This document shows positions 2,461-12,674 of a DNA stretch of 18,501 nucleotides, one piece after another. The stretch's first letter is position 1. Every line of letters starts with the position of its first letter. The stretch is from a candidate division WOR-3 bacterium (GTDB lineage: Bacteria; Hydrothermota; Tepidihabitantia; Tepidihabitantales; Tepidihabitantaceae): positions 1 through 18,501 of the forward strand of contig JAUWNN010000029.1 in assembly GCA_030612625.1 (NCBI GenBank), given 5' to 3'. The position numbers and the translations under genes are program-made. The notes under the pieces are model-generated. The model was not told where the DNA came from. It made no database searches and saw only the letters and a program-made list of their open reading frames with translations.

Positions 2461-3351
2461 TCACTGGCCATCGAGTTCGGCACGCAGCGAATCAACGACT
2501 GCGCCGAAGCCTCCACGGTAGCCACCTGAAGTCGGGTGGCTGGCCTTGATGAAGGCTATCACATCTCCGTCCTCTTCGTGTCTGAAGTGGACGATTGAAC
2601 CGTCAAGCCTTGGCATGCTCTGCGGGTCAAAGTTGATGGTCCATTCGTCATTGGTCCAAGGGTGGATGTGTCTTCCGGGGACGCCGCGAGCGGCCCGGTA
2701 GATCCAGTTCGTCCAAGGCCAGCCGAAGCATACCACGGCTCTCGGTCTGAAAAGCGTTACCAGCTCAAAGGACTTGCGACCGCAGTTGTCCAGTTCAGCC
2801 GCGCTTGGCATACCGGTGCGAGGTGGCGTTTTGCAGTGAGAAGCGTTCAGCGCAACGACGCTGCCAAGGTAACCTTGCTCGCATGCGTGAGCGAACCCTG
2901 GATGATTCGGAACCACATGCACGTTATTTCCCAGAAGGTCTCGCCGGTCGCCTGCGGCCAGTAGGATGCCCAGAGCAGCTCCGGTGACGCTGTCTTCGTA
3001 CCAGCCAGCTTCTATCTTGTCGACTCCGGGTTCAGCTTCGTGGTCATACCAATGAAGGTGACGGTTTGCGTATGTTGCATCGTCTGGGTCCTCGCCAACG
3101 TGCCAGCAACCTGCGTCATGCAGACCCCCGAGACCTGGGTTGATGCCGACGAAGAATATATCCTTCCGGCCTCCCGCTGGCGAGTGTGGTTCGCCGTAGA
3201 TGGCCTCGGGAATGTACTCTGGCAGATCTAGTCTGAGGTGCTGTCGCTGGCGCATTAGCGCCCTGCACTCTCCGCCGACCCAGCAAGGGCACTCTCGTCG
3301 GAACCAGCGGTACAGGACCTTCTCTTCGTGCGTCAGGTCGTCCCAGTTCAC
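2461..3351 (-). CDS. uracil-DNA glycosylase superfamily protein, MUG/TDG-like (GINPGL motif), Cys-rich N-terminus
   Basis: 296-aa ORF with GTG start. Preceded by AGGAGG plus a 5-nt spacer (rc of 3353-3360). Motif A FFVGINPGLGG matches the family-2 UDG GINPGL signature. A later VVPNHPG resembles the motif-B HPS/NPSG region. Several Cys (CPCWVGGEC...) may form a metal or Fe-S site. Assignment rests on motifs only. Confidence 0.5.
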   Translation of the reverse strand: MNWDDLTHEEKVLYRWFRRECPCWVGGECRALMRQRQHLRLDLPEYIPEAIYGEPHSPAGGRKDIFFVGINPGLGGLHDAGCWHVGEDPDDATYANRHLHWYDHEAEPGVDKIEAGWYEDSVTGAALGILLAAGDRRDLLGNNVHVVPNHPGFAHACEQGYLGSVVALNASHCKTPPRTGMPSAAELDNCGRKSFELVTLFRPRAVVCFGWPWTNWIYRAARGVPGRHIHPWTNDEWTINFDPQSMPRLDGSIVHFRHEEDGDVIAFIKASHPTSGGYRGGFGAVVDSLRAELDGQ

Positions 3352-3441
3352 CGATACCTCCTTTGGTATAGATGCACGGCCGAGTATCGCTCAGGCAGGG
3401 GCGGAGTCAATAGGCTCAACGCGCTACGGGTTGTCCGTTGG

Positions 3442-4689
3442 TTACAGCGCGTGGGGACTGCCGTCTTCGAGCAGCACGGTCTGGCCGAACGCCTCGGCGA
3501 AGGCCTGGGGGTGCTCGGTGTGGATTGGGAATAGCTGGGCGGGTTTCAGCGTGCCGATGACCCGCTTGAGCAGGCCGAACGGCGCGTGGCCCGAGACGTG
3601 CCGGATTTCGAACTCGACGCTCTCACGCCCGCACCAGCCCTTCAAGCTCTTGAGATGGCGGTCGAGGTACCCGGGCCACATCGAGTAAATGAGCCGGGCG
3701 TCGTGCAACAGCCCGTGCTTCTTGATTTCGGCCTGCATGTTGGGCCGGAACAGCATTACCGATTTCCCTCGGCCCGTGCGCAGGGCTTCCTCGTAGATGC
3801 GTCGGCCGTAGTACGGGCCGGCGAGGGCAGCGTTGCCCGCATCACACAGCCTTGAGCGCATCCCCCAGGGAAGGTAGATGCGAAGGTCACTTCTCCTTGG
3901 GCTGGGCAGCTTCTTGCGGCCAGCCTGCCGGAGAGCCCGCAGTAGTTCCGCGGTATACAGGTCAATGACCATCGTTCGTCCGGCCCGCTTGGTCGCCTTG
4001 TAGAACGTCACGAACCGGTCGATGTTCTGGGCAGCGTAGAACGCGAGGACCAGCCCGGTTGCGCTGCGGATGCGCTCGACCAGCTCGTTCTCAAGCTGCT
4101 TCTCGGTCTTCGCGGGATGGTCGGCATCTGACCTGCCGGCGGTCGTGCCCTCGATGACCAGGGCTTCCAGCGGTCTCGGGCAGTCCCTGAGCAGGCGAGG
4201 CAGAGCTCCGGGCTTGCGGCCGTGGTCGCGCAGGTCGCCGGTATAGAGCAGGCGCTTGCCGCCGCATTCGACGAGCAGGGCGTGGGCGTCGTAGGCCGAG
4301 TGGTCGACGAGGAAGGGTGTGATGCGGAACGGGCCGACTTTGAAGAGCTGGTAGCTTTCGTAGGGCACGGCCTGCTTAGGCACGCGAACGGGCATGAACG
4401 GTTCGGCTGCCTTGAGCATCAGGAGTGACTCGCGGCCAAGGAAGACCGGGACGGTGTCGGCCAAGTGGTTCCACAGCCCGTAATGGTCAGCGTGGGAGTG
4501 GGAAACGACTACCCCGAGCAACTCACCGGCTTTCGGTGTCAGGTTGAGCGAGGCGGGGAGGTTCGGCTGCTCGCCCTTCCTCAGGTCCAACGGCGCACCA
4601 ATGTCGAGCAGGATGCGTTGATCGCCAGTGGCTAACTCAACGCAGTTGCCACCGACCTGCCGCGCGCCGCGGTGGATGGTGAGGCGCAT
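3442..4689 (-). CDS. beta-CASP family MBL-fold nuclease (RNase J / TTHA0252 / Artemis-like)
   Basis: HxHxDH motif SHSHADHYG. N-terminus MRLTIHRGARQVGGNCVELATGDQRILLDIG matches the beta-CASP N-terminal pattern (M.I...GGAREVGGS...LLDCG). The longest ORF starts at 4719 (MASRKGLGSR-), so the start could be 4719 or 4689. TAA stop at 3442-3444. Confidence 0.75.
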   Translation of the reverse strand: MRLTIHRGARQVGGNCVELATGDQRILLDIGAPLDLRKGEQPNLPASLNLTPKAGELLGVVVSHSHADHYGLWNHLADTVPVFLGRESLLMLKAAEPFMPVRVPKQAVPYESYQLFKVGPFRITPFLVDHSAYDAHALLVECGGKRLLYTGDLRDHGRKPGALPRLLRDCPRPLEALVIEGTTAGRSDADHPAKTEKQLENELVERIRSATGLVLAFYAAQNIDRFVTFYKATKRAGRTMVIDLYTAELLRALRQAGRKKLPSPRRSDLRIYLPWGMRSRLCDAGNAALAGPYYGRRIYEEALRTGRGKSVMLFRPNMQAEIKKHGLLHDARLIYSMWPGYLDRHLKSLKGWCGRESVEFEIRHVSGHAPFGLLKRVIGTLKPAQLFPIHTEHPQAFAEAFGQTVLLEDGSPHAL

Positions 4690-4697
4690 CCGGCTGC

Positions 4698-5612
4698 CTA
4701 AGCCCTTCCGCGAAGCCATTTGTCTCTGAGTGTGCTGGGTTTGATTCCTGCCGGGTCCTTTATCATCGGCGTCAGGCGGCCGGACATCTCGCTGCCGTAG
4801 CGGACCATCATCTCGTTGATGTGCCGCTTCACCTTCAGTTCGGCTCCTCTGCTACCGTACTCGAACACGAAGAGTCCGACGCGCCTGTCAATTGCTGTTG
4901 GTTCAGGGAGGCTTTGGCCAAACAGCGAGTTCATGGTGCGAACGTATTTGCCATACTGAGAGAGTATCCGACGGTAGTTCTTGTCGAGTTGGCTGTCATA
5001 GCGCTGCAACTGCCATATCACGCCGTGCGGTTTCGCATCGAATGCTCTCAGTCGTGGGTCATCCCAGCGCTTTGCCTCGAAGAAGGTCAGTCTCTGGTTT
5101 CGCTTGTCGAGAAGGACGAAGTCAATGGCGTCCCGTGAGGCAGCCCTGTCGCTGAAGGTCACCTCGATGTCCAGAACGACAACATCGCTCTCGATGTCGC
5201 TGGCGTGGGAGTATGTCCACATGGCCGAGAGACCGCCACGCTCGCGTGTTCTGTGGAGATCAACGTTACCCTTTATGGCCTCGTATCCATCAACGAAGCT
5301 CTCGAATGGCTCTATCGTGCCCATCTTCTTTTCTGTGACGTAGTCAGGGTCACGAGGTTGCCTCTTGGCTGCGAAAGCGAACTTCACGTTGGTCAGGAAT
5401 TCCCCGCTAGGCAGGTAGCCGAACAACTTCTGGCCAGCGTAGTAGAAACTCACCTGGGATCCTCTGCCTCTTATCGTTGGTAGCACAACGCCCCGCTTGA
5501 TGTCACCCAGCAGACGGTCTTCGAATAGCGGCTCCCTCTTCAGGGTTTCGACTTGCCCATCCGCCAACTCCCGGCTGAATGTCGGCGTCGATCTTCCCTT
5601 CGACGTACCCAC
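4698..5612 (-). CDS. PD-(D/E)xK-like nuclease-fold hypothetical protein
   Basis: 304 aa, from GTG at 5612-5610 to TAG at 4700-4698. The GTG overlaps the upstream TAG stop by 1 nt (TAGTG). Preceded by AAGGAG 7 nt upstream. Candidate catalytic core VLLD-x11-FFEAK (hhhD...ExK). The 597-aa ORF in the track (4698..6491) is this gene fused to an out-of-frame Arg-rich shadow of the upstream gene. Confidence 0.6.
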   Translation of the reverse strand: MGTSKGRSTPTFSRELADGQVETLKREPLFEDRLLGDIKRGVVLPTIRGRGSQVSFYYAGQKLFGYLPSGEFLTNVKFAFAAKRQPRDPDYVTEKKMGTIEPFESFVDGYEAIKGNVDLHRTRERGGLSAMWTYSHASDIESDVVVLDIEVTFSDRAASRDAIDFVLLDKRNQRLTFFEAKRWDDPRLRAFDAKPHGVIWQLQRYDSQLDKNYRRILSQYGKYVRTMNSLFGQSLPEPTAIDRRVGLFVFEYGSRGAELKVKRHINEMMVRYGSEMSGRLTPMIKDPAGIKPSTLRDKWLRGRA

Positions 5613-7027
5613 TAGCAACTCCTTTCGTCTACAACCCCGCCCAGCCATCCCATCACCGCCCAGGTGGCTTCGAGGTCTTCTCGGTTGTAGAGCATTATCT
5701 TGTCCATTGTCTCCTTCCTCAAGTCTTCGTCCTCGGTTTCGACCGCCTTGATGTACTCGGCCATTGACCATGCGCCGTTGGATTCGGGCAGGGTGCGCTG
5801 ATACCCTGCGCGCTTCTCGACCAGCTTGATGCTGTAGCTCGGGTCCGGCAGGACCACCGCTTTCTTTGTGATAGGCAGCAGGTCGCAGAGGTTCTTGAGT
5901 ACACGCACGCCGACGCCGGCCGGGTCGCCGAACCGCTCGATGTACTTCCTGACGTGGGTCTTCTCGTACGGCGCCCAGTGCACGAACGGGATGTCGCCGA
6001 GGCAGGCGAAGATCCCGGCCGCGTTGTCGAGGAACTGCATCCAACCGTTCCTGTCGCCATCCGCCCCGAAGTCCGCGACGGCCTGGAGGCAGGGCTTCGG
6101 GTTCACGCCAAAGACCTGCGTGCCCCAGAGGTATATCTTCTCGGTCTCGTTCAACTGCGGCGGGAGGCCTTCGAGGTCGAACATCACGTAGTTGTCGCTG
6201 GCCGGGATTCCGGGCCGCGACAGCACGATGACTTCGCCGGTCGTGAAGGCGCGGGCGTGGTTGAGTATCGAGGTCGCCTTTGACCCGACCCTCTGCATGC
6301 GCGTCCCAACCGGCCGCTTCAGTTCGCTCAGGGCGTCCTTCGTGAACCGTGATGGAAGGTCCCGGTAGCTCCCAATGCCCATCTCGCGGAATGCGCTTGC
6401 GGTTCCCTGGTCCACATCGGGCAGCACCGCCGGGTCCTCGGATGCTACGGCCTTGAGCCAGCAGTGGTCCCAGTAGGCGCAACCGCCGCACTTGGACCAG
6501 CCGACCGGGATGTAGTCGGACAGGCCGTTGTCGAGGACCGCCTGCATGCGTTCGAGGGTCGCCAGTGCCTGGCGACCCTGGTCGTAGGGCAGCGGTACGA
6601 TATCACCGGTTCCGGCCACTACTTCGATTCCGGCCGGCGGATGGCCGAAGGTGGATTCGTACAACCAGCCGTACAAGTCCAACTGCTCGAGGATCTCCTC
6701 GTGCTCGCTGACGCGCCGCGCCACCTTGCAGTCACGCACGCGGTAGCCGTCGCCGTAGCGTACAAGGAAATCGGGCACGCCGACGATGGTCACGTCCGGG
6801 GAAAACGGGGCATTTGCGGTCAGGAGCGGCTGGTACAGAACCGGCGTGCTACTACGCACTGCGTCCCGGGTTGCTTCGCTCCGTTCCTGGAACGGGACCC
6901 TGGAAAGGTCGGTTACGTCCGTGAGTGTCGCAAGGTAGGCGGCCTCGTGCCTGTTGCCGAGTGCCTTGAGTACCTGGTCAAATGCACCGGGCTCGGCTTC
7001 TGCGAGCCCCAGCCGTCTGCAGTCCAC
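5612..7027 (-). CDS. TM0106-family putative RecB/Cas4-like nuclease (PD-(D/E)xK + Fe-S Cys + C-terminal RNase H-like domain)
   Basis: 471 aa, GTG start. N-terminal Cys (MDC...) plus a C-x2-C-x5-C cluster (CGGCAYWDHC) as in Cas4. PDFL...RDCK...EQLDLY (D, DxK, QxxxY) RecB-family motifs. C-terminal VMFDLEG...YNREDLE consistent with an RNase H-like exonuclease fold. Overall architecture matches the TM0106 family (TIGR03491) from memory. Confidence 0.75.
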   Translation of the reverse strand: MDCRRLGLAEAEPGAFDQVLKALGNRHEAAYLATLTDVTDLSRVPFQERSEATRDAVRSSTPVLYQPLLTANAPFSPDVTIVGVPDFLVRYGDGYRVRDCKVARRVSEHEEILEQLDLYGWLYESTFGHPPAGIEVVAGTGDIVPLPYDQGRQALATLERMQAVLDNGLSDYIPVGWSKCGGCAYWDHCWLKAVASEDPAVLPDVDQGTASAFREMGIGSYRDLPSRFTKDALSELKRPVGTRMQRVGSKATSILNHARAFTTGEVIVLSRPGIPASDNYVMFDLEGLPPQLNETEKIYLWGTQVFGVNPKPCLQAVADFGADGDRNGWMQFLDNAAGIFACLGDIPFVHWAPYEKTHVRKYIERFGDPAGVGVRVLKNLCDLLPITKKAVVLPDPSYSIKLVEKRAGYQRTLPESNGAWSMAEYIKAVETEDEDLRKETMDKIMLYNREDLEATWAVMGWLGGVVDERSC

Positions 7028-7102
7028 CCGACGGATGCACTCGCTGGGGTTGTAGTAGAAGGCCAGGTCAGAGGCCGAAAGCTGTTTTATGCAGTTTTCC
7101 GT

Positions 7103-7153
7103 CTAGCGGTTCACGTTCAGCAGCGGGGTCAGCTTCTGGTCGAAGGGCATCAT
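7103..7153. repeat. R1: direct repeat copy of the SPFH gene 3-prime end (pseudo-terminus ending TAG)
   Basis: Minus-sense ATGATGCCCTTCGACCAGAAGCTGACCCCGCTGCTGAACGTGAACCGCTAG encodes MMPFDQKLTPLLNVNR*. One mismatch to R2 over the 45-nt core. 34/36 identity to the authentic gene end R3. Confidence 0.9.
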
Positions 7154-7252
7154 TGGCATCGGTAACGCTAACCGCTTTTCTCGGCATGGGTGCTTGGGCA
7201 ACACCAGTGGTTTTCCAACAGCCGAGGGCGGATTTTCCTTCACCATGCCTTA

Positions 7253-7280
7253 TTCCTACCCGAATCCGGGTGAGTGTCAA
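7253..7280 (-). promoter_or_regulatory. M1 promoter module: TTGACA-N16-TAGGAA(T), 6 nt upstream of a 47-aa ORF that ends in R1
   Basis: Minus-sense gcTTGACActcacccggattcgggTAGGAAtaaggcATG. The spacer carries CCCGG/CCGGG half-sites. Homologous to M2 and M3. Confidence 0.5.
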
Positions 7281-7316
7281 GCGGGGCAGCTTGAACCGGG
7301 AGTACGCCGTTGGCGG

Positions 7317-8981
7317 TCAGCGATGCGCGGCGTGGATTGAGTTGAACCTCGCAACGGCCCGTGTGACCTCCGGGCTCGCCCTGGTGAAGCGTTCACCGTG
7401 ACGTGCTCGTCTGACCAGTCCTCTGAATGTCCTTATTACGTGTTCCTTCTCTTCTGACGAGACCCAGAAGGGGTAAGGAAGTCGCTCGAAGTCCTTGCTT
7501 TGGATATTCTTGGTGTGGTTGATGACTTGCTTCAGGATTCTTGAGCACAAGGGTGTGAGCGTCCATCCCAGTATGAAGTACGACTCATCCTCGGCGATAC
7601 CCTCACGCAGGAAGGCACAGGGTGCTCCACTGTCCAGAACATAGCCTTCAGGTAGATACTTCACGTTCAGTCTTGGCGCGATCAACTGCCAGGTCAGCCC
7701 GCTACGCTTGAAGTAGCGCTGTCCTCCTACGCCGTGCAAGTACCAATTGCCATTCTTCTTGAAGGTCAATACTGCGTCGCCATCATCTTTCCAGTATATC
7801 GCATAGGATGGAGGAGCATATACGATGCCGTTCGTCGCCTTGTTGTAGTAGCTGTAATCCGGATGCGGGAGCTTGACGGTCTTCGGTGTCTTCCGAGCGA
7901 CTATCCTGACGTTGCGCTTGGTGGCGCCAACCGCTTCGAGCCGCCTTATTTCCATCGTCTTCCCGGGCGAGAGCTTTCCCAGTCTTGCTCTCGCCAGTTC
8001 TTTCTTCAGGGTGACGGGGTCCTCGTAGTACTCGAACCGGTAGGGTTCGCTGACTGCTTCGTTTTCGATGCGGCGGACGAAATACTCGTTCTTGCCGACC
8101 GTCATTCCACTTGTCGCAACCACATACTGGGCCAGGCGCGGGCCTTGGAAGTACCCGGTCAGTTCCGGCGTGATGCGCCAAGACAGGTTGTCGGTAAGCT
8201 CGATTGTATCTGAGCCAATCCGCTGTCCGTTTATCTCAACGGCAGCGGCTTTCCCATTCTTGCGGAAATCCAGGACAATCGTCGGCTGCTGGGTTTCCTC
8301 AGAGAATTCGGCGAGGTCTTTGATTGACGTCTCGCCATAGTCCATGAGCAGCCGCCGCAAGCCGCGCATGGTTCTTATTGTCAGGAACGTATCGGAGCAG
8401 ATAAACCGCAGCACACCGTTATCCCTCAGGAGGTCCAGGCACTTCACAATGAAGAACGAGTACGTTTCCTTCTTGATTTTCTCTCCGTTTCTGAACCCGT
8501 ACTTCCGGTCAAGCAAATCCTGGATGTCGGGGTCGAGAGTGCCGCCAAACGGAGGGTTGCCCACAATGTAACTGAAGCCAGGAGTCGGACCGCTCTGCCA
8601 GTCCAGTTGGCGTTCGACGGACGTCCCGCCGAGCGAGCTGCGGAAAAAATCGCCGAGCTCGAAGTTGTGATATTCCGGTATCGGTCCCCACCGAGATTCT
8701 ATTCTGGCCAGGCACTTCGCGTACAGTTGTCTGTCGATTTCAACCCCGAAGACATTCCTGCCGAGTACCTCAGCCAACCGTTGGTTTGTACTGCCGGTAT
8801 ACAGGGGCAGGAAGCTTTCAATCAGAGGAATCACGAACGAACCGTCGCCCATGCTGGGTTCCAGTACCCTGTCGGAGCGTCTGAAATGCAGGTCTGAAAG
8901 GAGCTGCCTGGCGAGAGGCTCAGGCGTCATGAACTGGCCAAGCTGGCGCTTCCGGGGTCTTCTGGTCTTGGTTTCGCTCAC
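7317..8981 (-). CDS. N6-adenine DNA methyltransferase, gamma-class (Eco57I/TaqI-like) with C-terminal target-recognition region
   Basis: 554 aa. Motif X QFMTPEP, motif I LEPSMGDGSF, GVEID, motif IV YIVGNPPFGG, in the gamma-class order. The GTG start overlaps the stop of the upstream ORF (GTGA). Confidence 0.85.
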   Translation of the reverse strand: MSETKTRRPRKRQLGQFMTPEPLARQLLSDLHFRRSDRVLEPSMGDGSFVIPLIESFLPLYTGSTNQRLAEVLGRNVFGVEIDRQLYAKCLARIESRWGPIPEYHNFELGDFFRSSLGGTSVERQLDWQSGPTPGFSYIVGNPPFGGTLDPDIQDLLDRKYGFRNGEKIKKETYSFFIVKCLDLLRDNGVLRFICSDTFLTIRTMRGLRRLLMDYGETSIKDLAEFSEETQQPTIVLDFRKNGKAAAVEINGQRIGSDTIELTDNLSWRITPELTGYFQGPRLAQYVVATSGMTVGKNEYFVRRIENEAVSEPYRFEYYEDPVTLKKELARARLGKLSPGKTMEIRRLEAVGATKRNVRIVARKTPKTVKLPHPDYSYYNKATNGIVYAPPSYAIYWKDDGDAVLTFKKNGNWYLHGVGGQRYFKRSGLTWQLIAPRLNVKYLPEGYVLDSGAPCAFLREGIAEDESYFILGWTLTPLCSRILKQVINHTKNIQSKDFERLPYPFWVSSEEKEHVIRTFRGLVRRARHGERFTRASPEVTRAVARFNSIHAAHR

Positions 8982-9685
8982 CTTAGATTCAGTGGGTTCT
9001 GCGTATCAGCAGTTACCTTGCGCCGGGAACTCTTGAGGTACCGGGAGATATCCTTATGGAATCGGGCAAGTGATTCCGCACGGTTGGCGGCCAGGCGTTT
9101 GTTTCCATCCTCCAGCATCGCGTAGAGTTGTTTTACCTTGCGCCTGATGGCTAGTGTTGGGGGTGATGTCCCTTTGGCCATCGCGTCATAGAAGGCGTTG
9201 GCTTTGAGCATTATCTGACCGGGACCGGAGTCAAACGTCATGTAGGAAAGGTAGTCCAGCAAGTCGAGAAAGTAGACCCTGCACGTGATTTCCCTGGTGA
9301 TGTCCATCTTGACCATCAGCAGGTAGTAGGAATCAATCTGGTAGCCTAGGAGTGCCCGCAGCAGCTTCTTCAAAGAGACCATGTTCGGCTGCCCACCTGT
9401 CGTGGTTACGCCCGCCTTGACGTTGACCGGATGGTAGATACCGCCGCACTCCAACCAGAGATCCCCCATGGAGCGCATCCGCCGCTGGCCCCTGCTATCG
9501 CACTGGTGTTTGGTTACATACTTCACGGTCAGCAAAGCAGTAGTTTTCTCGTCCACGAGGTCGGCGATTCGGTGTCCGATTTCCTTGCCTTGTGCGATCT
9601 CGCGGAAGTACCTTTTGCGTACTTCACTGTCCCAGTAGGCCTGGGTATCCCTGCGGATTCGCTTGGCGGTCCTGGCGTCTATCAT
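8978..9685 (-). CDS. putative restriction endonuclease partner (hypothetical 235-aa protein)
   Basis: Translationally coupled (GTGA overlap) immediately upstream of the MTase. Driven by the M2 promoter. No recognisable family motif, so the call rests on gene context only. Confidence 0.4.
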   Translation of the reverse strand: MIDARTAKRIRRDTQAYWDSEVRKRYFREIAQGKEIGHRIADLVDEKTTALLTVKYVTKHQCDSRGQRRMRSMGDLWLECGGIYHPVNVKAGVTTTGGQPNMVSLKKLLRALLGYQIDSYYLLMVKMDITREITCRVYFLDLLDYLSYMTFDSGPGQIMLKANAFYDAMAKGTSPPTLAIRRKVKQLYAMLEDGNKRLAANRAESLARFHKDISRYLKSSRRKVTADTQNPLNLR

Positions 9686-9694
9686 CTTGCTTTG

Positions 9695-9723
9695 TTTCTA
9701 CCCGATTCCCGGATAGGTGTCAA
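9695..9723 (-). promoter_or_regulatory. M2 promoter module: TTGACA-N17-TAGAAA, 9 nt upstream of the REase ATG
   Basis: Minus-sense ccgcTTGACAcctatccgggaatcgggTAGAAAcaaagcaagATG. Leaderless-like geometry. Confidence 0.55.
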
Positions 9724-9746
9724 GCGGAGCGGTCCGCGCAACGCGG

Positions 9747-9804
9747 TCAGCGGTTCACGTTCAGCAGCGGGGTCAGTTTCTGGTCGAAGGGCATTATCAC
9801 GAGG
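9747..9804. repeat. R2: direct repeat copy of the SPFH gene 3-prime end (pseudo-terminus ending TGA)
   Basis: Minus-sense GTGATAATGCCCTTCGACCAGAAACTGACCCCGCTGCTGAACGTGAACCGCTGA encodes VIMPFDQKLTPLLNVNR*. Homology to R3 extends through tatcacga. Confidence 0.9.
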
Positions 9805-11546: not shown

Positions 11547-11765
11547 CTTGCGCCTGAATTTGAACTAGAGCTTCCAAAGGATGTTGAGCGTGACTTCAGA
11601 CGAAGTGTGAGCGAACTTGGGACACGAGAGAAGAGGGAGAAAGGAACAGGGAGGCTTGGGACACAATCCCAAAGGGAACTGTTTCGAGCGTAGCACCCGA
11701 GCGGAATCAGGCTATGTCCCGGGTCCAGGCCGGTCCGCGGCGATGCCAGAGTAACGAGGCTGGGA

Positions 11766-12674
11766 TTACCTCACATTCAGCAGCGGTGTCAGCTTCTGGT
11801 CGAAGGGCATTATCACGAAAGTGCTGTTCTGGCTGTCCGCGACATTTCTGAGCGCCTTGACATAGAACCAGGTCAGGTAGTTCCGGGTTAAAGAGACAGC
11901 GATGAGCCGGTTTGCGTCCGCAATACCCCGGGCTTCAATCCGCTTTCTCTCGGCTTCTTTTGTTTCCTTGGCCAGGGTGAACTCCATCTTCTGGGCATTC
12001 TGGTCCTCGGCCAGCTTCGACTCGATGGCGTTCATCACGACGTCAGGCAGTTTGACCCGGCGCAGGAGCATCCGCTCCCGGATGACGCCCTTGCCGGTAA
12101 ACGCGACATCCATCATCGAATCGACGACTGTGGTGTAGGCGGCCCGGCCGTCGGATGAGTAAAGTTCGCTTGCGGTGAACCGCGAAGCGGCGTCGCGGAG
12201 CGCGGTCCGGATTGATGGCCGGACAATCTTCTCAACATAGTTGGGCCCGATGTTCTTGTACACCCAGCTTGCCATCTGCTCGTCGAGCCGGTACCAGACG
12301 GTGACGTCGAGGGTCACGGTGAGTCCGTTCGACGCGAGCGCATCGATCGCGTCGTCACCCCTGATTTGTCCTTCTTCGCGCATGCTCGACATGGTGTAGG
12401 CGTTGGTGCGGACGTCCATGAGCACGACGTTGACAATCGGGACTACGATGTTGAGTCCGCTCTGCATCTGGTTCTGGACTTTACCCAGAAGCACCGGGAC
12501 CCCGGCATGGCCGGGCGGGACGATCCGGAAGAACGAAATCCCGAACAGGATTGCCAGGACGACAATTGCGATGATGCCGGCACGCTTGGCATAAAGCCGG
12601 CCTTTGCCGCTTTGCCTGACTGCGACATAAGCGATTATCGCGATAATGGTCAGGATGACTATCAGTCCAAACAT
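11766..12674 (-). CDS. SPFH/band-7 (prohibitin/HflK-like) membrane protein
   Basis: 302 aa. Two N-terminal hydrophobic segments, then an SPFH core (FFRIVPPGHAGVPVLLGKV...). Strong SD aaaaGGAGGtaagATG. The C-terminus ...IMPFDQKLTPLLNVR* (R3, 11766..11824) is the sequence duplicated at R1 and R2. Confidence 0.85.
   Translation of the reverse strand: MFGLIVILTIIAIIAYVAVRQSGKGRLYAKRAGIIAIVVLAILFGISFFRIVPPGHAGVPVLLGKVQNQMQSGLNIVVPIVNVVLMDVRTNAYTMSSMREEGQIRGDDAIDALASNGLTVTLDVTVWYRLDEQMASWVYKNIGPNYVEKIVRPSIRTALRDAASRFTASELYSSDGRAAYTTVVDSMMDVAFTGKGVIRERMLLRRVKLPDVVMNAIESKLAEDQNAQKMEFTLAKETKEAERKRIEARGIADANRLIAVSLTRNYLTWFYVKALRNVADSQNSTFVIMPFDQKLTPLLNVR

Follow-up and report, generated by a model that had tools for sequence, protein, structure and literature searches.

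Nucleases of the metallo-β-lactamase (MBL) fold (PMC12799240), nucleases of the Cas4 family (PMC12094033) and divergent proteins resembling uracil-DNA glycosylases (UDGs) (PMC11078745; bioRxiv 10.1101/2025.10.29.685425) have all been shown experimentally to be defence components. The MBL pro-nucleases found in Hachiman, AVAST, Lamassu and DRT are activated by a trypsin-like protease partner and resemble DNA-uptake nucleases (PMC12799240). Cas4-family enzymes assist other immune effectors, as CRISPR Cas4 does and as ACE1 does with long-A Argonautes (PMC12094033). Brig1 and Brig2 are single-gene defences of the UDG superfamily that are barely detectable by sequence search (PMC11078745; bioRxiv 10.1101/2025.10.29.685425). 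Here we analyse a minus-strand cassette (2461-7246) that combines relatives of these protein classes in a candidate division WOR-3 bacterium (GenBank assembly GCA_030612625.1). It lies on contig JAUWNN010000029.1, the whole of which (18,501 nucleotides, 18.5 kb) is referred to below as the window. A first-pass annotation had placed four open reading frames (ORFs) here, and all four are present at their positions. They encode a TM0106-family nuclease (g1), a PD-(D/E)xK-like protein (g2), a β-CASP MBL nuclease (g3) and a weakly UDG-like protein (g4). Our comparison shows that the conserved unit is the β-CASP MBL enzyme with an adjacent PD-(D/E)xK-like protein of ~300 aa, whose family changes by locus. 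The region is most likely a variant of a widespread, unnamed and horizontally mobile nuclease module that occupies one cassette of an insertion hotspot. The evidence is computational throughout, and all statements on function are predictions.

The MBL member of the pair, g3 (3442-4689, minus strand; 415 aa from ATG 4689, alternative ATG 4719), matches Lactamase_B, Lactamase_B_2 and RMMBL above their cutoffs (25.1 for RMMBL, cutoff 21.6), in agreement with its earlier assignment to the β-CASP MBL fold. Its MBL motifs, H74-x-H76-x-D78-H79, H140 and D162, are invariant in an alignment of 31 sequences. The β-CASP residues E190, H378 (SGHA) and H400 (PIHT) are likewise invariant in the 31 sequences, E190 being equated with β-CASP motif A by position only. 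RNase J and EF2904 (PDB 2AZ4, 3e-31) are the nearest solved relatives, and the alignment with them includes SGHA and PIHT. As a candidate RNase J proper, g3 was rejected at 39.5 bits on TIGR00649 (cutoff 400). According to the original description of β-CASP enzymes, a His at motif C reportedly goes with RNA substrates and a Val with the Artemis/SNM1 DNA nucleases. Since g3 has the motif C His and matches RMMBL, it looks like an RNA-type β-CASP enzyme. The label Artemis/RNase J-like given to it previously is thus sound for the resemblance to RNase J and doubtful for an Artemis-like role on DNA. ATG 4689 is probably the g3 start because homologues begin at Met11. This start lies 8 nt past the g2 stop, so the two genes do not share the overlap of 10-22 nt that had been proposed.

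The partner, g2 (4698-5612, minus strand; 304 aa), is predicted to begin with a beta-rich domain and to end with a nuclease domain of PD-(D/E)xK-like type. Across 182 aligned relatives, D164 and E179-A-K181 are 99-100% conserved; the wider set of E124, D148, E150, D164, E179 and K181 is 96-100% conserved and is followed by Q201 and Y205. This near-invariant D..ExK pattern corresponds to the PD-(D/E)xK signature, as the first reading of g2 had suggested. By motif, and probably by fold, g2 fits the PD-(D/E)xK superfamily as a member of no curated family. No Pfam, NCBIfam, PADLOC or PHROG family was matched at E<=0.01, and none in NCBIfam at E<=10. A Foldseek search of the predicted g2 model against the PDB returned no significant match, and fold comparison of the predicted model also matched the repair nucleases NucS and Bax1. 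Three relatives of g2 were found by a word-indexed search of 5.8 billion proteins; with a profile, 1149 were found among 1.84 billion cluster representatives. As judged by these searches, the g2 family is sizeable and unannotated.

In the protein collection, the g3 family forms at least 1946 clusters. Of 185,579 species genomes, at least 565 (~0.3%) carry a member, and these span many bacterial phyla and include one archaeon. A g2-family ORF is directly adjacent in 30 of 81 MBL loci, mostly downstream, overlapping or 3-19 nt off. A second partner family, c1, is found in 11 of the 81 (blastp 1e-4; 12 by stricter clustering) and conserves D142..E156-L-K158. Partner family p84 also keeps D..E-x-K, and further MBL loci have partners of 200-380 aa without a Pfam match. 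Where both flanks are visible, 49 of 61 loci have a co-directional adjacent ORF of 190-460 aa. The D..ExK pattern is present in 38 of the 61 adjacent ORFs, compared with 31 of 624 control ORFs. It is these adjacency and motif counts that show the conserved unit to be an MBL enzyme with a swappable partner. Exchange is seen even among MBLs 48-60% identical to g3, which pair with at least five unrelated partner families (at least four besides that of g2). From motif and position we infer a common PD-(D/E)xK fold for the partner families, structure modelling having covered g2. Relatives of g1 and of g4 number zero each in the 81 MBL-family loci. A small ORF (130-160 aa) frequently runs up to the MBL start or overlaps it (L167 5576-5971; L168 5516-5992; L010 9561-9992). 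It was seen on plasmids and on chromosomes where the partner lies downstream, and could be a third component of the module.

In the clade nearest to the window, a TM0106-family gene joins the pair. The order TM0106, partner, MBL is found in four other independent loci (L084/L085, L088, L089 and L171), whose TM0106 proteins are 59-70% identical to g1 and whose MBLs are 48-60% identical to g3. This bears out the proposal that g1, g2 and g3 belong together. TM0106 relatives that are at most 52% identical to g1 have no MBL nearby. Because these distant relatives lack the MBL gene and none of the 81 MBL-family loci has TM0106, the link between g1 and the MBL is specific to one clade. Another 7 MBL loci have a DUF2779 protein nearby, which shares with g1 the combination of Cas4 and RNase H-like exonuclease domains (PMC3985635, PMC13621843). 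In L055 and L064, the MBL gene, the g2-family gene, a metallophosphatase gene and the DUF2779 gene form one string on the same strand. Since DUF2779 occurs in other MBL loci, a Cas4-exonuclease accessory has been recruited more than once.

Several further loci around these genes were noted. In Bradyrhizobium and a related proteobacterial metagenome-assembled genome (L055 8729-14389; L064 8592-14501; L047 1961-5522), a long same-strand string contains an ADP-ribosylglycohydrolase, the MBL, the g2-family gene, a small ORF, the metallophosphatase and DUF2779. Brig1 loci also adjoin an ADP-ribosylglycohydrolase (PMC11078745). At L087 (5679-13913), a TM0106 protein 60% identical to g1 is encoded between a module-type AAA ATPase gene and a gene for a 1114-aa type IIG-like methylase-containing protein, with no MBL gene within 8 kb. 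TM0106 relatives of ~50% identity in L090-L166, mostly from peat and soil metagenomes, occur without MBL. Eight of these loci share a conserved ORF of ~373 aa that follows TM0106 directly (e.g. L147 1151-2272), at a 4-nt overlap or a 45-64-nt gap.

The g1 gene itself (5612-7090, minus strand) encodes 492 aa if read from ATA 7090. Its product scores 130 bits on TIGR03491, the TM0106 family (curated cutoff 97.45, E 1.2e-37), and also matches PDDEXK_1 and RNase_H_2 (PF13482, 38.6 bits, cutoff 22). The TIGR03491 and RNase_H_2 scores are above cutoff, and the family call made for g1 at the outset holds. A Cas4/RecB-like PD-(D/E)xK domain with four Cys makes up the N-terminal part, and an RNase H-like exonuclease domain of the DEDD type the C-terminal part. 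In an alignment of 62 relatives, g1 keeps all positions whose conservation reaches 93% or more, among them C18, D107, D120-x-K122, Q136/Y140, C201/C204/C210 and D305-x-E307. The four Cys would be expected to bind an iron-sulphur (Fe-S) cluster. The protein falls outside Cas4 proper (27 bits on TIGR00372, cutoff 65). No description of a biochemical study or of a function of TM0106 was found in the literature, for which search coverage was incomplete.

Four homologues 59-70% identical to g1 begin at the position aligned to window 7090. The window codon there (7088-7090) is ATA, where the four homologues have ATG or GTG. The GTG at 7027, previously taken as the start, is too far downstream; it would delete Cys18, and the four-Cys signature is complete only from 7090. 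Because the homologue starts align at 7090 and GTG 7027 removes the conserved Cys18, the predicted g1 start is ATA 7090. ATA is listed among the start codons of translation table 11. A predicted upstream ORF of 47 codons, found by translation (7103-7246, minus strand; ATG 7246 to TAG 7103), is in the g1 frame, and its TAG falls four codons short of the g1 start. Reinitiation after this ORF, read-through or decay of the start codon may each apply to g1. At the other end of g1, its stop codon overlaps the start of g2 in a TAGTG at 5612, with AAGGAG upstream, and the nucleotide that g2 was said to share with the g1 TAG stop is indeed shared.

Downstream of the MBL gene, the window departs from its nearest relatives. 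An AAA ATPase gene (PF00004, in some cases with a winged-helix) comes right after the MBL gene in L083, L084/85, L086, L088, L169/170 and L172. These are all six nearest-clade loci with downstream DNA visible, and none has a UDG. In the window, g4 (2461-3351, minus strand; 296 aa) stands where the clade-typical ATPase would be. The earlier question of whether TM0106 recurs with β-CASP and UDG-like partners is therefore answered positively for β-CASP, in four other loci, and negatively for UDG. The g4 protein matches the UDG superfamily weakly, at 18.0 bits on Pfam PF03167 (E 0.0031; gathering cutoff 24.3) and 13.1 bits on TIGR00758, the family-4 UDGs (E 0.059). The Pfam match aligns residues 79-222 with model positions 7-103. 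FFVGINPGL (residues 76-84), which includes GINPGL, lies at its start, and FIKASHPTSGG, which includes SHPTSGG, lies near the C-terminus at residues 267-277. LNASHCKTPP is accompanied by flanking cysteines, as in Fe-S UDGs, the cysteines of g4 being Cys21/23/29/171/189. Motif A (GxxPG after a hydrophobic strand) and motif B (an HPS-type loop) were assigned by eye. A single-sequence AlphaFold2 model, with no homologues for an alignment, reached a predicted local distance difference test score of 33.6, too low for the model to be used. We consider it likely that g4 has a UDG fold. Its initial classification in the UDG superfamily is in keeping with the GINPGL and HPTSGG motifs and not supported by the Pfam score, which is below threshold.

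A search of 5.8 billion proteins for homologues of g4 returned only g4 itself. Nothing was found among PDB sequences at E<=10, in viral contigs, plasmids or phages, or by tblastn against 172 loci at E<=0.1, and none of 2761 neighbouring ORFs of related loci has the UDG motifs. The gene is separated from g3 by a gap of 90 nt, in which no terminator-like site was found. The gap contains a promoter-like sequence, TTGACT-16-GATACT (3383-3410, minus strand); it comes from a consensus scan that found 3 sites where 0.9 were expected in the region, and is no evidence of function. A ribosome-binding site, AAGGAGG at 3357-3363, precedes g4 as had been reported. Because g4 follows a 90-nt gap with its own ribosome-binding site and promoter-like site, the tight coupling predicted from gene spacing covers g1, g2 and g3 only, with g4 initiated separately. 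The tightly coupled four-gene operon of the first-pass annotation is accordingly reduced to three genes. GC content at third codon positions (GC3) also differs within the cassette (0.82 in g1, 0.83 in g3, 0.70 in g2 and 0.64 in g4), which supports a mosaic origin. Most likely, to judge from this arrangement, g4 took the place of the missing ATPase as an independent acquisition, and it may be an effector that works by itself in the manner of Brig1 or Brig2.

The cassette is the third on the minus strand in what appears to be a tandem insertion hotspot, where a 49-nt direct repeat, R1, acts as separator. The cassettes so separated hold a helix-turn-helix gene, a putative endonuclease gene with an Eco57I-type methylase gene, and the four ORFs at 2461-7246. 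By repeat search and alignment, R1 is present on the minus strand at 7105-7153, 9749-9797 and 11765-11813, with copies 84-100% identical; the copies at 7105-7153 and 9749-9797 are 96% identical to each other. R1 corresponds to the last 16 codons of an SPFH/Band_7 gene (11766-12674), of which the copy at 11765-11813 is the genuine C-terminus. The copy at 7105-7153 forms the upstream boundary of the g1-g4 cassette and supplies the last 16 codons of the 47-codon upstream ORF. R1 resembles an attachment site of such a hotspot. The 18.5-kb window encodes no recombinase, and R1 is absent from the other 172 loci and from viral contigs.

The adjoining cassette presumably encodes a type II restriction-modification (R-M) system. 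It comprises an Eco57I/PglX-like N6-adenine methylase (7317-8981) and a 235-aa ORF (8978-9685) that has no library match, overlaps the methylase start by ATGA and would be the endonuclease. The mobile setting beside an R-M cassette that was described for g1-g4 is therefore real. Between the two cassettes lies an M1-like element, TTGACAC..GGGTAG (7258-7287, minus strand), which was identified as a direct repeat and by alignment and is at most a candidate promoter. A second copy (9700-9730) lies just upstream of the R-M cassette, ~15 nt from the ATG of the putative endonuclease gene. M1 had been put forward as a possible promoter of the cassette; it does recur in this way, and it failed a scan for the sigma-70 consensus. 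It could be some other kind of promoter or a piece of the cassette boundary. At the distal side, ~530 nt without annotated function (1930-2460) separate g4 from a convergent B12-binding radical SAM gene (439-1929). GC content drops from ~0.60 to ~0.47 across 1930-2460, and therefore the distal cassette end is probably there.

The distribution of the module is sporadic and horizontal. It was found on 23 plasmids, and in the 81 loci the neighbours of the pair include integrases (7 loci), resolvases (4), WYL/WCX regulators (9), AAA ATPases (5), metallophosphatases (5), RNase T (4) and ADP-ribosylglycohydrolases (4). Toxin-antitoxin genes and relaxases also lie near the pair, as do genes that we read as McrBC-like. 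On a Rhizobium plasmid, the pair adjoins Eco57I-type methylases and a GIY-YIG nuclease, and on an Ochrobactrum plasmid the module adjoins an AddAB-like pair. Among 133 flanking ORFs searched with Pfam and PADLOC, Gabija, DRT, type I and II R-M methylases and PDC-S48 are present, which is suggestive only, there being no baseline. Viral contigs gave just 12 matches among 2.9 million (IMG/VR), and a phage-borne function was rejected.

For the module as a whole, the function we tentatively favour is innate defence against invading nucleic acid, to which we assign a little less than an even chance. Defence fits better than repair because of the horizontal spread, the mobile and defence-rich neighbourhoods, the adjacency to R-M genes and the partner swapping. 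In such a system, the variable PD-(D/E)xK partner (g2) would recognise the target and make the first cut. The β-CASP enzyme (g3) and the TM0106 exonuclease (g1), which would act bidirectionally, would then degrade the product; the substrate could be DNA or RNA. If active, g4 would be a base-excision effector akin to Brig1/Brig2, working alone or in an auxiliary role, and not the sensor of the module. A bolder form of this proposal, which we hold to be possible and on balance doubtful, is that β-CASP enzyme and swappable PD-(D/E)xK partner constitute a widespread, unnamed prokaryotic immune system in which the partner confers specificity. Taken jointly with that proposal, and no more probable than it, the TM0106/DUF2779 Cas4-DEDD exonuclease, the AAA ATPase, the metallophosphatase and RNase T would be optional processing modules. 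The window would then show a unique derivative of the system, with a new lineage of Fe-S UDG-like glycosylase, directed against modified-base invaders, in place of the ATPase.

Several observations weigh against defence or against the unity of the module. The RNA-type appearance of g3 sits poorly with a DNA target. Neighbours such as the WYL regulators, RNase T, metallophosphatase and Cas4-exonucleases suit DNA damage or repair equally well. The window copy may be impaired, with ATA at the g1 start and no AAA ATPase gene, of which no remnant was found in the window. No system-specific PADLOC model was matched by any module protein. The c1 and g2 partner families gave a probability of 0.3% in hhalign, with only the D..ExK region aligned. 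Finally, the flanking ORFs are heterogeneous and include housekeeping genes for trehalose synthase, LpxB and a penicillin-binding protein.

The likeliest alternative is a module for DNA repair or damage tolerance, whose nucleases would process damaged ends or crosslinks and to which the UDG-like protein would add base excision. Here g3 would act as an SNM1-like β-CASP enzyme, the partner as a structure-specific PD-(D/E)xK nuclease and g1 as a Cas4-DEDD end resector, comparable to glycosylase-nuclease clusters for self-resistance against genotoxins. WYL/WCX regulators in 9 of 81 loci would suit such a role, as would the RNase T, metallophosphatase and DUF2779 neighbours, the AddAB-like pair beside the module on the Ochrobactrum plasmid and the match of the g2 fold to NucS and Bax1. 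Solo Cas4 proteins have also been suggested to serve in repair or defence (PMC5704561). We nevertheless judge repair unlikely. The distribution is sporadic (~0.3% of species) and clearly horizontal, the module is carried on plasmids alongside integrases, R-M and toxin-antitoxin genes, and wholesale replacement of the partner between close MBLs would be unusual for a repair pathway. The RNA-type features of g3 also speak against it, and no glycosylase accompanies the module anywhere else. If repair were nonetheless its function, the module would be an unusual, horizontally mobile repair device.

The first-pass annotation had proposed that the four genes form one system, with the UDG-like glycosylase detecting uracil or modified bases in invader DNA and the three nucleases destroying that DNA. 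All four genes are on one strand without a terminator-like site between g3 and g4, g4 carries the GINPG and HPTSG motifs, and effectors of the UDG superfamily do act against modified-base phages (PMC11078745; bioRxiv 10.1101/2025.10.29.685425). A combined function limited to this locus is conceivable. The comparative evidence makes this system improbable. As g4 is without a homologue and never occurs with the module elsewhere, as no UDG ORF is found among the 2761 neighbouring ORFs, and as an AAA ATPase is the conserved occupant of its position, the idea of one conserved unit built on a glycosylase is abandoned. Since g4 has no relatives and an ATPase holds its place in the clade, recognition of uracil or modified DNA would not be the conserved logic of the module; it would be a local add-on at most. 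The UDG match lies below threshold, and a promoter-like site and ribosome-binding site follow the 90-nt gap. The codon composition of g4 is unlike that of g1 and g3, and Brig1 and Brig2 work as single genes.

Equally, the window might hold a decaying copy, the passively carried remnant of a TM0106-partner-MBL-AAA system from which the ATPase and the start codon of g1 have gone. The absent AAA ATPase, the ATA where four homologues have ATG or GTG and the mosaic composition are what such a history would leave. However, the frames of g1-g3 are uninterrupted, the conserved positions of g1 and the catalytic residues of g2 and g3 are all retained, and the translational coupling signals are intact. 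MBL-partner pairs without the ATPase are moreover the majority form, ATA is a permitted start in table 11, and the in-frame upstream ORF could allow reinitiation. We regard decay as having little probability.

That the nucleases serve the mobile element carrying them, in competitor exclusion, addiction, or recombination and processing during transfer, is suggested by the repeat-bounded hotspot, by plasmids and the integrases, resolvases and relaxases alongside, and by how often mobile elements recruit Cas4 genes (PMC5704561), but is also quite improbable, since 2.9 million viral contigs gave only 12 matches, the conserved set has no recombinase, the lack of R1 in the other 172 loci shows that no single element type binds the module, and such a role overlaps with defence in practice.

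If defence is indeed the function, a broad family has been missed by current detection tools, with at least 565 species genomes, ~2000 MBL and more than 1100 partner clusters, and with members in archaea and on plasmids. Specificity could then be studied in a natural experiment, one nuclease being combined with at least five unrelated PD-(D/E)xK partners among close relatives. A first functional context would be given to two large and uncharacterised groups, the TM0106/COG2251 and DUF2779 Cas4-exonuclease fusions and the EF2904-like β-CASP enzymes, and g4 would join the extremely divergent UDG-like proteins that lie beyond sequence searches.

Compared with known systems, the set fits none that is catalogued. 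In PADLOC-DB v2.0.0, g2, g3 and g4 have no matches, and g1 has domain-level Cas4/DruK matches only (E 1.6e-7 or weaker). Membership in Shedu, Hachiman, Upx or Avs was rejected, no model being matched, and in the literature, where search coverage was incomplete, no description of the TM0106-partner-β-CASP gene combination was found. Single PD-(D/E)xK defence nucleases are known in Shedu (SduA, DUF4263), Upx, HamA and Can2/Card1. Neither Pfam DUF4263 nor the Shedu, Hachiman or Upx models of PADLOC are matched here, and Shedu and like nucleases come without a β-CASP MBL gene, whereas g2 is always paired with one. The pairs of MBL pro-nuclease and protease (HamM/Avs; PMC12799240) are alike in setting an MBL nuclease beside a variable defence partner, repeatedly acquired and exchangeable. 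In contrast to those enzymes, g3 is a β-CASP protein related to RNase J and EF2904. A pro-nuclease and protease pair was also rejected, as no protease gene was present among the scanned window ORFs or in the nearest-clade loci.

Of the accessory genes, g1 shares the D..DxK, QxxxY and four-Cys signature with Cas4-family nucleases, and the fused RNase H-like exonuclease with the DUF2779 proteins (PMC13621843, PMC3985635). It differs from the Cas4 systems in belonging to TIGR03491/COG2251, and no CRISPR array, cas1/cas2 or Argonaute is found here. By motifs and setting, g4 is likened to the highly divergent UDG-like proteins Brig1 and Brig2, which carry hypothetical-protein annotations and lie in mobile cassettes or defence islands (PMC11078745; bioRxiv 10.1101/2025.10.29.685425). 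As these act alone, the resemblance argues for a g4 that is independent of g1-g3. With the β-CASP ribonucleases RNase J, CPSF73 and Cas14, and with EF2904, g3 shares the MBL and β-CASP regions and the His at motifs B and C. It is shorter than RNase J (~415 aa), without the RNase J C-terminal domain, and its partner gene encodes a nuclease and not a protein of RNA metabolism. Modular swapping of effectors is a feature of Lamassu, CBASS and Avs. The module differs from them in having a nuclease for its core and in lacking an obvious sensor or signalling enzyme; it is like them in having a core gene with interchangeable nuclease-type partners at one position. Judged against all of these systems, its novelty would lie in an unannotated and widespread combination of a β-CASP enzyme with a swappable PD-(D/E)xK partner, to which TM0106 and an AAA ATPase are added in one clade and of which the window holds an atypical copy.

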